64,000 nt of DNA from Kiritimatiellia bacterium (GTDB lineage Bacteria; Verrucomicrobiota; Kiritimatiellia; RFP12; JBMNHG01): assembly GCA_050950285.1 (NCBI GenBank), contig JBMNHG010000008.1:620001-684000 (forward strand), in the 5' to 3' direction. A program made the translations under genes and the position numbers. The notes under the pieces were generated by a model. It did not search any database. It was given only the letters and a program-made list of their open reading frames with translations, and was not told where the DNA came from. This document shows, piece by piece, positions 33,963-40,032 of this stretch (the first letter of the stretch is position 1; every line of letters starts with the position of its first letter).

Positions 33963-34138
33963 GGGAATCCCTTTCAAGAAAACCGGCGGGGCCGATGAGG
34001 ATGAGCGATAGGCCAACCATACCATCCCGGAAAGCGTTTTGCCACCGAAAACACATCCCGCCGGGCGGAAGGCGGACGGCACCCTCCTTTCGCCCCGTTT
34101 TCCTGGCCTGTCTTTTCCCTATTATGCTTACTAACCCG

Positions 34139-34288
34139 CTAACCCGGCCACAAATAGCGCTGCTCACGGAGATTCAGGCATGAGGAGCTGGAATTTGGAG
34201 CCGGGAAAGGGGCACGGACATTCCTGTCCGTGTCACGGGTTGGAAAACCCGTTCCCCTGTTTTGCAGCATGAATTGTGGCCGAGTTAG
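34139..34288 (+). mobile_element. ~150-bp MITE-like element, copy 1 (TIRs plus internal REP-like doublet)
   Basis: Starts CTAACCCGGCCACAA, ends TTGTGGCCGAGTTAG followed by TA; preceded by TA plus an extra CTAACCCG (34129-34138); near-identical inverted copy at 39743-39891. Confidence 0.8.
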
Positions 34289-34338
34289 TAAACCCCTCCA
34301 CCAACGCCGTGCGCCACGGCTTGGCGGACGGGAATGCG

Positions 34339-34953
34339 TCAAGCCCTCCGCGCGTGCCTGCGATGGAGGGCCAGGACGCCGGCACCAACCAGCAGCAATC
34401 CGAGCGCCGACGGCTCGGGGACGGGGATCGCATTGTACGTGCCGGCATAGATGCCCGCTCCGGTCGTCTCCGCCGCGCTGTCGACCAGAACCAGATCCGT
34501 GCCGTTCCAAAGCAGCGAGGCCCAGCCGTAGATGTACTTCGTATAGTCCGCGCCGCCCCTGGCCAGCCGGAACCCAAGATAAAAGATCCGGTTGTAAGGC
34601 ATTTCGATCGAGCCAAGCGCGTACGTGTCATTTCTGCCCAGATACTCGGCATTCTCCATGGCCGCCGCGTCCAAGGCGGCGCCGTATTGCGTCTCGAACC
34701 ACCAGTGGCGGATGCCGATCGTCATGTCGGTTGCCTGCAAGGAAGCCTTTAAACGAGGGCCACGTACGATTTCAAGCAAAATGCCGGCACCGCCGCCTGG
34801 AGATATTTCCGATGCAAGGATATGGGTTGACGGGGGCCAATAACTGGGGCCCAGCGTGACGGCGCCCCACACGACCGTCGCGGCGGGCGCGGCTGTCGCC
34901 AGAAGCAGGGGCAGAGCAAAAGCGGCGCATCGGAGTTTTCTGCATCGTTTCAT
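34339..34953 (-). CDS. PEP-CTERM sorting domain protein
   Basis: AAGGAG RBS, signal peptide, YIYGWA motif, C-terminal VPEPSALGLLLVGAGVLALHRRHARRA. Confidence 0.9.
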   Translation of the reverse strand: MKRCRKLRCAAFALPLLLATAAPAATVVWGAVTLGPSYWPPSTHILASEISPGGGAGILLEIVRGPRLKASLQATDMTIGIRHWWFETQYGAALDAAAMENAEYLGRNDTYALGSIEMPYNRIFYLGFRLARGGADYTKYIYGWASLLWNGTDLVLVDSAAETTGAGIYAGTYNAIPVPEPSALGLLLVGAGVLALHRRHARRA

Positions 34954-34979
34954 GGGAGACTCCTTCTTCGTGTTTCGTG

Positions 34980-37900
34980 TCACGGAAGCGGGGTGAAGCC
35001 GGCGAGATCCACCTCGGTAAGCTGGTAGCCGCCGCCGAGATCGGACATCAACCGGTTGATGTCGTCCTTGATGGCGGCCACGGAGGTGCCGGAGCCTGCC
35101 TCCCCAAAAGTCCACACCGTAAGCAAAACCGGTTCGCCAGAAACTACAATCAAAGCGGGATTGCCCGAGTCGCCACCGATGACGCGCTCATAGAACGAAT
35201 ATCTGGAGGGGTCTGCGGGGGACTGGAATTTGGAGGTTCCTCGTGGATCACTTGCCGTTACATTCCACAAATCACCGACCAGCGCCTTCTCCTCCTGGTC
35301 GAGACGTATGGCGGGAAGACGCGCCCCGGTGCGGATATAGTCGGCGTAATTGTCCGGAAGCACCCTGGCAAACGAGATCTGGTTCGTCGGCACATCGGCA
35401 TCAAGCAGGCCCACGGTAATATCATAAGCGTGCATTGAAGGGCCAGAGTAGCGGGGATGCTGTCTCTTCGCCACGAGTTTCCGCGTGATGACGTTGTTCT
35501 GGCGGTCGACGAAGTATACGAAGCAGCCCGCCGGCAATGCATGGTGCGCCGCGAAGAGGACATGCCGCGGGCTGATGAGCGTACCGGCTTTCTCGTTGTT
35601 TTCGCAGCTGTTCCACGGGCTGCAGCAGGTCAAATCGAGGTCTGCGGCCCAGCAGTTGGTGTTGCGGAGGAAGACGCCGTCGGCCCCGTTGGCGAGGTAG
35701 TTCTCGAAGAGCGGCAGGGCGACGGCCGGATCCTTGCCCGCGATGCGGCTGTCGATGGCGAAGGCGGCGTTGGCCAGCGCGCTGGTGTTGGTGGTGACGT
35801 CGGCGATGCCGGGGTCCGTCCCGCTCCAGCATTCGTGGAGATTGACGAGCAGGTCGCCGTCGGGGTCTTCCAGCGCGTCTGGGACGCCGATGGCGACGGC
35901 GTCGTAGAGCCTCTCCCACAGGTCGGACATGCCGTCCCCGTCCGTGTCGAAGGTCCGGTCGTCCACCGTGATGTTGCACCGGACGTCGTGGTGCCGGCGC
36001 ACCAGGTGGTACACGCGGCTGAACTCGTTGGTGCCGCAGGCGTGGTCGCCGTCGTCGTCGTTGTAGCATCGCAGGCGCCATGCAACCGGCACGGTCGTGG
36101 ACACGTGGGGCAGGGCGAAGGGGCCGTTCGTCGGCGCGAAGTCGACCAGCGTCGTGACGACGGTATCCTCAACCCGCTCGAACGCGAGCCGGACGTCGGT
36201 CTCCAGCCACAGCTTGTTGGTGAAGACGCCGCTGGCGGAGAAGCAGTAGTTGTTGCCGTCGGCGGGATCGGTGCCCTCGGCGACCTCCTCGTTGTCGGGC
36301 ACGCCGTCCCTGTCGAAGTCGTTGATGCAGATCGAGACGGTCGGTCTGGCGAAATCCGTCACGCAGGCCACATAGAGCGGCTCGGTGGCGGCATCGCGGA
36401 TGCCGTCGCCGTCGAGGTCGCAGAACGCCTTGACGTAGATGGAGCGCGCACTGTTGGCGGGGACGGACGGGAATTGGAAACCGCCCTCCTTCACGATCCG
36501 GACGGCGTTGGATTCGTTCCATCCGGAGGCGGAGAGGCCCCAGGTCACGTGGTTGGTGAAGATGTCCGAGTAGAGGTTGGTGATGGCGCCGCCGACCGTG
36601 ACGTGGCAGGAGGCGGGGTTGGTCGGGCTGGAGCCGTACTGGTTCTCCAGCCAGTCGTTCACGCCGTCCCCGTCGAAGTCGCCGATCTCGATGGAGACCC
36701 GGGGGAAAAACGTCAGGAACAGCGCCCCGTAGACCGGCTCGGCCGCGGGGTCGATCACGCCGTCGCGGTCCATGTCGCAGGCGGCCTTGACCCAGAGGCT
36801 TGTGCCGGGCGCGAACGAGAAGGGGAAGGAGAACGAGGCGTTCCCCGCGAACTGGGTGACGGTGTGCGCGCCCATGGCGGGGGCGTCGTCGAAGGCGTAC
36901 GACACGATGTTGGTGAGCGCCTGGGAGAAGCGGTTGGCGACCGCGACGGAAACCGGGCGGTTGACCGAGCGGGGATCGGCGGGATCGGTGCCGTCGGCCA
37001 GTTCGTCCGCGTCGCCGACGGAGTCGCCGTCGGAGTCGGTTTCGTAGGGGCTGGTGCCACAGGTTTCGACCTCGACCGCGTCGCCGATGCCGTCGCCGTC
37101 GCTGTCGCCCGCGGCGAAGCCGGCGTATTCGTCCGCGCCGATGTCGGGGGCGGCGTCGCGCGCCTGGCCCTCGAAGTCGAGAGGCGGCGCGGCGTCGCAG
37201 CCCGCGTCGATCGCCGGCGAGCCGCCGCGCAGGTGTCCGTCTGTCGCCAGACGGGCGTTGGCGACCAGCAGGCCGGAGCAGGCGTCGGGCGGGAACCAGT
37301 CCAGCGCACGGGGGACGAGACAGCGGGTCATGCCGACGTGGTAGGCCGCGCTTCGCTGCAGGCGGACGAAGGCGTGGACGTCGGGGTGGGCGAACGATTC
37401 GTCCCAGACGCAGTTGACAAGGTCCGCGGCGACGGGGTTGTCGGCGGAGCCGAAGTTGCCCGTCGTGGATTCGAACTGGATGCCGTAGGCGGCGTACGAC
37501 GGCGAAAAGTCCAGGAACGTGCAGTTGACCAGCCGCAGTGCCGGGCTGTCGATGGCGTAGATGCCGCGCATGGACTTGCCCGCGCCCCTTTTCCCGCGGA
37601 TCACGCAGTTCTCGAAGCGCACCGCGCCGGGGGCGGAGTGGCGGCAGAAGAAGCCGACGTTGACGTCGCTGGCGCCGAGCTCGACCGTCACCCCCTCGAA
37701 GACGGGCGCGGCGCCCTTGTCGGGCGCGATGGGGGGGCCGTCGCCCAGCCAGAAGCCGATCTGGTAGGGGGTGGCGCCGCCGAGGCGCAGGTTCAATCCG
37801 CGGACGATGGTGCGATTGTCCTGGCGCGCGTTCATGTAGAAGGCGGCCAGGTTGCCGTCGTAGGTGACGGTCGCCAGCCGCGAGGCGCCCCAGTCCTCCG

Positions 37901-39422: not shown

Positions 39423-39526
39423 CCGAAACCGGCGGTTTCAAGACCCTGTCGCGTCGGCATGCCTTTCCGCCGCACAAAAACAGACGTCCGGTCGCGACAC
39501 GGCGCCACCATACGCCTTCCGGCATT

Positions 39527-39555
39527 ACTGTACACCCCCGCGGTTTTCGCCGCAA
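39527..39555 (-). promoter_or_regulatory. Candidate sigma70 promoter for the protease/PEP-CTERM operon, inside the repeat-bounded segment
   Basis: Minus strand TTGCGG-N17-TACAGT, about 105 bp upstream of the ORF start. Confidence 0.5.
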
Positions 39556-39742
39556 CGGCTTTTCGCAACTTTTTTTGCGGCCCCGAACCGCCATTCCGCC
39601 GGCTTTTCACGCCGCCGGCGCAACAGCAGACTCGCGCGCGCCGGCGATGAACGTGCCGGTCTCCGGCGGGAAGTCGATCCACCAGCACAAGGCCGATGCG
39701 GACGCCGCTCCCGTATCGCGAGGCCGTCCTCCCCAAGGGCTG

Positions 39743-39891
39743 CTAATTCGGCCACAATTCATATTGCAAAACAGGGGAACGGGTTTTCCAACCCGTGACA
39801 CGGACAGGAATGTCCGTACCCCTTTCCCGGCTCCAAATTCCAGCTCCCAATGCCTGAATCTCCGTGCCAGCGCTATTTGTGGCCGGGTTAG
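39743..39891 (-). mobile_element. ~150-bp MITE-like element, copy 2 (inverted relative to copy 1)
   Basis: Reverse complement matches 34139-34288 with about 7 substitutions and 1 indel; outer end ...TGTGGCCGGGTTAG followed by TA. Confidence 0.8.
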
Positions 39892-40032
39892 TATATTCCG
39901 TTTTCGCCCGGCGGTCCCCCGTTCTTCGGAGCCGGTGCGCTGGCATGCTTATTGCTTTTCATGATTCTTCTTGGGAATCGCGGACGCGTCGCGCGATTCC
40001 GGACGTATCGGCCGTTATCGAGATCCGCCATT

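Follow-up and report, generated by a model that had tools for sequence, protein, structure and literature searches.

MITEs at the edges of a secreted-protein operon, and a MITE-free copy of the operon elsewhere, suggest that the elements helped to copy the genes

Can a pair of tiny elements that encode no transposase move the genes that lie between them? The question is raised by a locus in a Kiritimatiellia bacterium (genome G000), at which two inverted repeats face each other across an operon for secreted proteins. The locus lies within the window, as we call the whole stretch of 64,000 nucleotides analysed here (site C8). The original prediction treated repeats and operon as one composite unit mobilised in trans. 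The presence of MITEs at the edges of the operon, together with a MITE-free copy of the operon elsewhere in the genome, suggests that the elements helped to copy these genes.

The predicted pair of inverted copies of about 150 bp is real, with 94.7% identity between the arms. MITE copy 1 (34139..34288, + strand, 150 bp) has IS630-derived ends with the TIR CTAACYCGGCCACAA and a strong fold-back. MITE copy 2 (39743..39891, − strand, 149 bp) belongs to a different subfamily, being closer to the element at C6:216165 (98.7%) than to copy 1, whose outer 60 columns are identical to the subfamily of C2:560169, C8:227967 and others. The left neighbour of the unit is a UDPGP-family (UAP1-like) gene (32544..33962, − strand; PF01704, E 1.6e-36), and the right neighbour is a gene for a giant TPR protein (40033..48270, + strand). 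A TA lies beyond both outer ends, as had been claimed: outside copy 2 it is read from the sequence at 39892..39893 (+ strand), and on the left it is found at 34129-34130, outside an 8-bp duplication of the MITE left terminus (CTAACCCG, 34131-34138; TA and duplication together 34129..34138, + strand). This duplication, which a contig of run X2 spans without a gap, makes the outer end of copy 1 abnormal, and because of it copy 1 alone among 55 left flanks has a flank ending in CCG. Single MITE copies, like the unit as a whole, bear TA outside their ends.

The contrast of intact outer with decayed inner ends, once read as the mark of a composite unit, does not hold. The outer 24 nt are indeed identical in both arms, but they are uninformative, the same 24-mer being common to 27 of the 55 copies. 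Copy 2 does have TG instead of TA as its inner flank (39741..39742, + strand), a variant that, as TG/CA, is the commonest departure from flanking TA (8 of 110 MITE ends). Its supposedly degraded GAATTAG end, however, also occurs in three other copies, with TA on both sides. The inner 15-mer of copy 1 is the commonest form in the family (26/55) and is followed by TA; the odd end of this arm is its outer one.

The family comprises 55 full-length copies in the 4.05-Mb genome, non-coding, shorter than 500 bp and with a 15-bp TIR, which may resemble the ends of ERIC. TA is present on both sides in 44 of them, and a filled site (C2:519426) can be compared with its empty counterpart (C2:524589), which has a single TA. 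Folding of copy 1 reaches z = −6.8, the range over the MITE being −3.6 to −6.8, and an Rfam search returned 0 matches. The very abundance of the family removes pairing as evidence: 55 copies predict a mean of 0.99 +/− neighbour pairs within 5.5 kb, where two are observed, and the chance of at least one such pair is P = 0.5-0.64. Cargo bracketed by two copies is thus present, though expected by chance about once per genome, a level of abundance that the original prediction had itself named as telling against it. A joint in X2 between 34257 and 39743 was set aside, as its short side has only 28 letters and it resembles the tandem MITE junctions at C6:189006-189760.

By the sequence of its ends, the MITE is derived from an IS630 element. 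The repeats had been assigned to the non-autonomous, TA-flanked members of the IS630/Tc1-mariner lineage, and the cognate autonomous IS630 is indeed found in a related genome, G040. This element is intact, 1,107 bp long and TA-flanked, with a 344-aa ORF that has DDE_3 (E 1.5e-37, above cut-off) and HTH domains; in the copies on C11 and C99 of G040, its ends are 22/25 identical to each MITE end. It disposes of the objection, raised in advance, that no IS might share the TIR. G040 carries two full copies and one partial copy of it, and also at least 20 MITE matches. Compared with G000, the IS630 gave no match over 30 nt; the MITE interior is accordingly not a deletion remnant of the IS. The cognate transposase was searched for in the G000 assembly and is absent. 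Two resident IS630 families (types C2:723483 and C2:131587) have TIRs that differ from that of the MITE, a DDE_Tnp_1 family search gave 29 matches, and a TIR scan with at most two mismatches revealed no inward-facing pair around a transposase. The 52 loci from the scan of the genome contigs are MITE copies, TIR stubs and chance matches, with ORFs read around 16 of them. Across 300 genomes of the class the TIR pattern had at most two matches per genome, like a reversed control. The window itself is transposase-less, as predicted: family searches gave no matches in it, and tblastx with seven transposase loci gave only short spurious pieces among the best 10 matches listed. ISY100, of the IS630 family, is reported to excise via double-strand cuts and to duplicate TA (PMC2170065), and the MITE would have been mobilised in trans by an IS630 transposase of the G040 type.

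Each arm also contains a REP doublet, i.e. two short palindromes, at 34208..34260 (+ strand; boundaries approximate) in copy 1 and at about 39771-39823 in copy 2 (within 39743..39891, − strand). The same doublet lies beside Y1/RAYT genes at C2:875448, at C8:57452 and in G040. It flanks both sides of the Y1 HUH gene at L002 and L134 and one side at L001, and it occurs alone in G023. Two Y1 genes above cut-off in G000 have the REP adjoining, and the Y1 genes next to doublets have the motif MPNHVHV. In having paired short palindromes clustered to either side of such a gene, the arrangement recalls REPINs and REPtrons. Unlike REPINs, the doublet has no GTAG tag next to its palindrome, being preceded by AAAG, AACAG, TAACG or CCTG in the copies inspected, and most copies here lie in MITE-bounded DNA. 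The first palindrome occurs 95 times in the genome, and 81 of these occurrences are so placed; the REP has thus spread here mostly as a passenger of a DDE-mobilised element and not as a free REPIN. Some MITE copies contain a tandemly expanded doublet; in five copies, the carrier of the doublet is itself the passenger of a further surrounding element. A search of mainly open-access literature listed no paper that deals with this MITE, with MITEs of Kiritimatiellia or with an IS630 MITE that contains a REP doublet.

Between the arms lie two co-oriented genes, as had been described. One encodes a PEP-CTERM protein of 204 aa (34339..34953, − strand; PF07589 and TIGR02595 above cut-off), and the other an exported TSP3-repeat protein of 1,480 aa with a predicted C-terminal trypsin-like serine protease domain (34980..39422, − strand). 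The candidate promoter claimed for this unit was not recovered, a sigma-70 scan of 39400-40050 giving 0 sites. The N-terminus of the 1,480-aa protein is signal-peptide-like by eye. Its C-terminal domain resembles proteases of the trypsin type: the residues of the His-Asp-Ser triad (H99, D140, S225) follow in order, with a GDSG-type motif, and are invariant in 5/5 aligned sequences. The Atlas neighbours of the domain are serine protease clusters (0.89-0.92), and a low-confidence structural model (pLDDT 47.8) has a Foldseek match to S1 proteases (E about 1e-7). The protein gave no Pfam trypsin match, and a sequence search of the PDB was without a match.

The insert occurs a second time in the genome. 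The duplicated segment (34298..39740, − strand) has its other copy at C3:738095-743532 (L108), between an HU-like gene and kdsB, and the 5.44-kb insert is 94.8-98.6% identical to it in three blocks (about 95-99%). The C3 copy has no MITEs and ends flush against the kdsB stop codon, and homology stops 9 bp (left) and 2 bp (right) from the inner ends of the MITEs. The left spacer TAAACCCCT (34289..34297, + strand), made up of TA and 7 bp, is missing in the C3 copy. At C8 it lengthens the stem of the 3′ hairpin of the insert; 4.1% of 3,000 random genomic 9-mers fold equally well (p about 0.04). The C8 version is fuller not only by this spacer but also by an in-frame stretch of 660 bp (36893..37552, − strand), which is deleted in the C3 copy. 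A homolog in G008 covers this stretch continuously (aa 461-991), so its loss on C3 is derived. Both versions are found in run X2, the contigs of which differ from the window at many sites, and an assembly artefact is therefore unlikely.

Large exported-protein genes are often duplicated in G000 without MITEs. Of 473 dispersed duplicated intervals of at least 1 kb, this one alone has MITEs no more than 10 bp away at its two ends, where three TA-site nulls give an expectation of 0.00009-0.0007. The observation is a lone one and was made post hoc. Thus the proposed tie between the pair and movement of the insert is upheld by the breakpoints of the duplicate. The jump of the whole unit, as originally envisaged, is not, the C3 copy being armless and an empty site not having been found. 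No MITE-insert-MITE unit was found elsewhere in G000, where the only other insert copy, on C3, is without both arms. Among 250 other genomes of the order there is no close copy of the insert, the best being partial matches of 70-82% in five. Neither C3 breakpoint has a clean empty TA target, and hypothetical junction probes matched nothing in G000 except the window's own site. A model with a circular intermediate, in which the two ends of the insert meet at a single TA, is without support.

A precise empty site, with UAP1 and the TPR gene meeting at a single TA, was likewise sought and not found. The only genome of the same genus, G001, is not syntenic and has no match to the insert: its UAP1 gene lies near a contig end, and the genes that precede the TPR gene and follow kdsB are different ones. 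In four of the 20 runs that hold the stretch, no UAP1-TPR joint was present among the matches listed (the best 15 of 22, plus 7); runs X16, X18 and X20 are too shallow, and X2 contigs end inside MITEs. A metagenome pattern scan for the empty site gave one unrelated match of 33 bp.

From these observations, the MITE pair is probably tied causally to the duplication of the insert, most likely via IS630 cutting at MITE ends. The explanation that we favour, with somewhat more confidence than doubt, is that an IS630 transposase cutting at the paired ends duplicated the operon and that the C3 copy is a trimmed derivative. The IS630-derived family would have spread to about 45-55 sites while transposase was available, and two copies of different subfamilies would have inserted separately at TA sites flanking the protease/PEP-CTERM operon. 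Transposase cuts at the ends of the pair would then have left the operon in two places on the chromosome, at C8 and at C3, and the version at C3 would derive by trimming from a MITE-bounded state. This could have come about by either of two routes. As a tentative proposal, the pair may have moved as one composite from either of C3 and C8 to the other, both MITEs later being excised from C3 with small deletions. More doubtfully, cuts at the two inner ends may have set the insert free without its MITEs; after losing 2 and 9 bp, it would have been captured by a break that had opened between the HU-like gene and kdsB. A search for Ku found none, so the end-joining that both routes need is without an obvious enzyme. 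The identity of the MITE, its kinship with IS630, the TA duplication, the duplicate with its breakpoints and the extra sequence at C8 are shown; we infer that a transposase acted here, in what order the steps came and how the breaks were repaired. As the assembly has no cognate transposase and the 8-bp duplication lies at the left outer end, the MITE-bounded unit can probably no longer move.

The reverse direction of copying, from a parent on C3, would explain directly why MITEs are present at C8 alone and why homology stops at their inner ends. The operon would have been copied into a break between two MITE ends at C8 by gap repair or template switching, with the 9-bp and 2-bp spacers as filler or target remnants. 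The C3 copy, moreover, has two tandem PEP-CTERM paralogs where C8 has one, a layout found also in G345; from two such genes, the single one at C8 could have arisen by collapse. We nevertheless regard C3 as an unlikely parent: C8 holds sequence absent on C3, namely the ancestral 660-bp stretch and the spacer that pairs with the 5′ arm of the hairpin, and two MITEs of different subfamilies would have had to face each other at C8 beforehand. It is more improbable that the hairpins drove the event, either through a resident RAYT (HUH) nicking single-stranded DNA near the REP doublets or through replication stalling at the 150-nt fold-backs, with transfer of the segment between them. G000 does have two Y1 genes beside this REP but no cognate IS630, and the MITEs fold strongly. 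TnpA-REP enzymes are reported to cut DNA in the vicinity of REPs, at CT or CA, and to carry out strand transfer there (PMC8266576), and the right breakpoint lies between C and T on the + strand. The left one does not, however, and the C3 side is without a following T at the right one; furthermore, the REP here is without the GTAG tag, and the parts of the TnpA-REP literature consulted describe no long-range duplication made by a RAYT.

Coincidence, in which the operon was duplicated without MITE involvement and two MITEs later inserted independently in both intergenic regions, would fit the chance expectation of such pairs, the different subfamilies of the arms, the few TA sites of the two regions (five within 216 bp, nine within 461 bp) and the commonness of MITE-free duplications. 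The position of the arms does not fit it: the expected number of intervals with MITEs at both ends is at most 0.0007 within 10 bp and does not exceed 0.044 even if the limit is widened to 100 bp, and we consider coincidence a poor explanation. Least credible is an invertible switch, with 34289-39742 turned round by homologous recombination of one arm with the other. In its favour, the repeats are inverted and 94.7% identical, and an AGCC variant near MITE position 62, found in these two copies alone among the 55, could be a short conversion patch. This sign of conversion was judged weak, and each arm's AGCC form is one change away from another family member. Inversion of the segment, which had been suggested, finds no support, for within each arm the outer and the inner part agree with the same subfamily, so that there has been no net crossover. 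The upstream region would turn over together with the entire operon, so that no phenotype is obvious, and the C3 copy would be left unexplained.

Returning to transposase action at the paired ends, MITE-bounded cassettes are already known, and the pair in the window is a variant of them. In TIME-COMPs and in the MITE-flanked class 1 integrons of Acinetobacter, paired non-autonomous TIR elements are reported to bracket genes in direct or inverted orientation, with the transposase supplied in trans (PMC13367494, PMC10969869). Two copies of one non-autonomous TIR element bracket genes here as well. In contrast to TIME-COMPs, these arms are IS630-derived and not Tn3-derived, chromosomal and of two subfamilies, and their cargo is an operon for secreted proteins. 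Whereas a composite jump carries its arms along, the second cargo copy is armless and ends at the inner edges of the arms. Short TIRs, TA duplication and a DDE and HTH transposase in the autonomous partner are shared with IS630/Tc1-mariner elements such as ISY100. RUP and Correia/NEMIS elements are MITEs linked to IS630. What sets the present family apart is an interior that is not an IS deletion remnant and carries a captured REP doublet, together with the absence of its cognate IS from the assembly.

It is conceivable, if doubtful, that MITE pairs work 'inside-out': cutting at the inner ends would free the genes in between as a bare fragment, and its capture elsewhere would yield a duplicate that bears no trace of the element. 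Such action would amount to a hidden duplication route for exported-protein operons. The element may also answer to two unrelated enzymes, its ends to a DDE transposase of IS630 type and its REP core to a resident RAYT. One case, without an empty site or an active transposase, is a lead and not a new system. The MITE itself documents the spread of a REP doublet as passenger of a DDE element. If our favoured explanation is right, a duplicate without an adjoining mobile element can still owe its boundaries to one, and tiny orphan elements would be remodelling the set of proteins secreted in a PVC lineage that has been little studied.

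Two inverted repeats on contig C8 of the source genome, at window positions 34139-34288 (copy 1, plus strand) and 39743-39891 (copy 2, minus strand), are 94.7% identical and separated by 5,454 bp; the pair described in the original prediction is real. Between these arms lie, on the minus strand, a gene for a 1,480-aa TSP3-repeat protein and a PEP-CTERM gene, and the unit is neighboured by a UDPGP-family gene and a giant TPR gene. The C-terminal domain of the TSP3-repeat protein was not detected in Pfam and PDB sequence searches. It is probably a trypsin-like serine protease, as predicted from His, Asp and Ser residues invariant in 5/5 aligned sequences, from its Atlas neighbours, which are serine proteases, and from a weak structure model (pLDDT 47.8) that matches S1 proteases. 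Elsewhere in the window, low-complexity Ala/Glu-rich coding repeats occur at 53140-53490 and 5950-6180.

The arms belong to an abundant family. BLASTN with copy 1 against the 4.05-Mb genome returned 95 matches at E ≤1e-5, including the 55 full-length copies that answer the call for a genomic count; about 45 are left after those with common left flanks are collapsed. TA is present at both sides of 44 of the 55, an empty single TA was seen at one paralogous site, and on the tests applied the 150-bp element is an IS630-derived MITE. The evidence originally offered for a mobile unit is mostly weak. With copies placed at random, a genome would on average have 0.99 +/- neighbour pairs no more than 5.5 kb apart (two observed), with a probability of 0.64 for at least one (0.50 if there are 45 copies), so that the pair alone means little. 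Nor do perfect outer ends single it out, the outer 24-mer being common to 27/55 copies, and the argument from decayed inner ends does not hold either: that of copy 1 is the commonest form (26/55), with TA, and the variant in copy 2 recurs in three other copies flanked by TA. It is on its left outer side that copy 1 is abnormal, with an 8-bp duplication. The two copies belong to different subfamilies along their whole length, which points to separate insertions without net crossover between the arms.

Other members of the family show further variation. The commonest departure at the flanks is TA to TG (CA on the other side), at 8/110 ends of full-length copies and frequently also among partial copies, and may mark copies that are no longer excisable. 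Internal tandem expansions, either of the REP doublet in 66-bp or 51-bp units or of the left 121 bp several times, are present at C2:967489-968166, C2:570443-570745 and C6:189006-189760. The copy at C2:379311, truncated at its left end and flanked on both sides by an ~11-bp direct repeat of flanking DNA with no TA, is a non-canonical insertion. Tandem arrays with one MITE per unit occur at C4:71098-78127, C11:239299-241125 and C2:118351-122313 (periods ~1.77 kb, 559 bp and 3.8 kb, respectively). Five copies (C2:560169, C3:508611, C6:396524, C8:227967 and, truncated, C8:308565) sit within a larger element of ~420 bp, which we take to be IS1595-like; as read at four of the five, it has a TIR of its own, ACTGGGTATGCAGTTG, and target duplications of 8 bp. 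These sites are three-layer nests of outer element, IS630 MITE and REP doublet.

The same MITE or its TIR was found in named Kiritimatiellia records, which would put the source organism in that class or close to it. Among 40 relatives compared, the whole MITE is present in G040 (full-length matches of 88-92% identity) and its central part only in G023. An insertion sequence sharing its TIR, as the original prediction anticipated, exists in G040: a 1,107-bp TA-flanked IS630, in two full copies and one partial, encodes a 344-aa product (DDE_3, E 1.5e-37), and its ends match the left and right MITE ends at 22/25 positions each. This transposase has no match in the source genome, whose two IS630 families have different TIRs. 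A lone TIR stub at C8:103589, with inner bases closer to the left end of the autonomous IS630 than to that of the MITE, is possibly a relic of a lost parent element. Since the same TIR encloses elements of 158-389 bp in other genomes, whose differing interiors consist of other short repeats (G323 C2 and C10, G324 C22, G326 C130; loci L156, L179, L175), this IS630 lineage has given rise to several independent MITEs. At the core of the MITE are two palindromes, a doublet found as well around a Y1/HUH gene at C2:875448 and around the 85%-identical counterpart of that gene in G040; of the 95 copies of the first palindrome in the genome, 81 are ≤700 bp from a MITE TIR. The two genomes belong to different families, yet have in common both the MITE and this RAYT locus (C2:874400-876000, L002, versus L134; ~85% DNA identity), which suggests that both systems were exchanged horizontally. 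G040 and G001 each also hold more than 20 weak Y1_Tnp matches in ~340-aa open frames (L136-L153), a multicopy family; the doublet is absent beside those examined.

What does support a tie to gene movement is evidence that a reader of the window could not see. In an all-against-all search, the insert proved to have a MITE-free counterpart at C3:738095-743532, flanked by an HU-like gene and kdsB, which matches it in three blocks of 94.8-98.6% identity. Homology starts 9 bp past the inner end of copy 1 and ends 2 bp short of that of copy 2. The comparison covered 473 dispersed intervals duplicated over ≥1 kb, which overlap and are not independent of one another. No other interval has MITEs ≤10 bp from both of its ends, or even ≤100 bp; three TA-site nulls give 0.00009-0.0007 and 0.007-0.044 expected intervals, respectively, in a test made after the case was seen and covering all 473. 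Coincidence is very unlikely. An assembly artefact is also unlikely, since read run X2, which has variants of its own, contains the C8-specific stretch as well as C3-type junctions. Separately, a distant paralog (38-39%) of the N-terminal part of the cargo protein is encoded by a 4.75-kb segment present at three dispersed sites in near-identical form, without MITE borders (C3:219552, C3:668189, C11:259259).

We somewhat favour a reading in which the operon came to be bracketed by two MITEs that had inserted independently, transposase cuts at the ends of these MITEs led to its duplication, and the C3 copy is a trimmed, MITE-free derivative. In ISY100, an IS630-family element, double-strand cuts at both ends excise the element and TA is duplicated (PMC2170065). 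One route, plausible if short of an even chance, is that the unit jumped as a composite and C3 later lost both MITEs; that cuts at the inner ends freed the bare insert, which was then captured at C3, is rather doubtful. Both would require end-joining, and Ku was not found. The C3 copy runs right up to the kdsB stop codon, and neither of its edges shows a TA target or a duplication. Of the two versions, that on C8 is the fuller: it keeps a 660-bp in-frame stretch, lost from C3 and spanned by a G008 homolog. Its 9-bp spacer, which lengthens the hairpin that follows the PEP-CTERM gene, is modest evidence: of 3,000 9-mers drawn at random from the genome, 4.1% fold equally well.

That C3, like G345, has two tandem PEP-CTERM genes counts against a simple C8-to-C3 order. 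The C8/C3 differences are clustered in patches, so that dating is blurred by later recombination. A rival in which the operon was copied from C3 to fill a gap at C8, between MITE ends, is unlikely. Transfer driven by RAYT or a hairpin is improbable; TnpA-REP cuts at CT or CA (PMC8266576). Inversion of the segment as a switch is the least credible alternative. The empty site anticipated by the original prediction did not appear in the relatives and read runs compared (G001 is not syntenic, and four read runs were uninformative at the junctions), and 250 other genomes of the order gave no close match to the insert.

MITE-bounded composite elements have been described (PMC13367494, PMC10969869; also PMC6382973, PMC3934969), and REP/RAYT systems are present in PVC bacteria (PMC3733652). 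A literature search of incomplete coverage found neither this MITE family, nor a REP doublet inside an IS630 MITE, nor a duplicate that lacks MITEs yet is delimited by the inner ends of a pair of them. In contrast to a composite transposon, the C8 unit was seen complete only at its own site and lacks asymmetry of its ends; it may nonetheless have worked like one.
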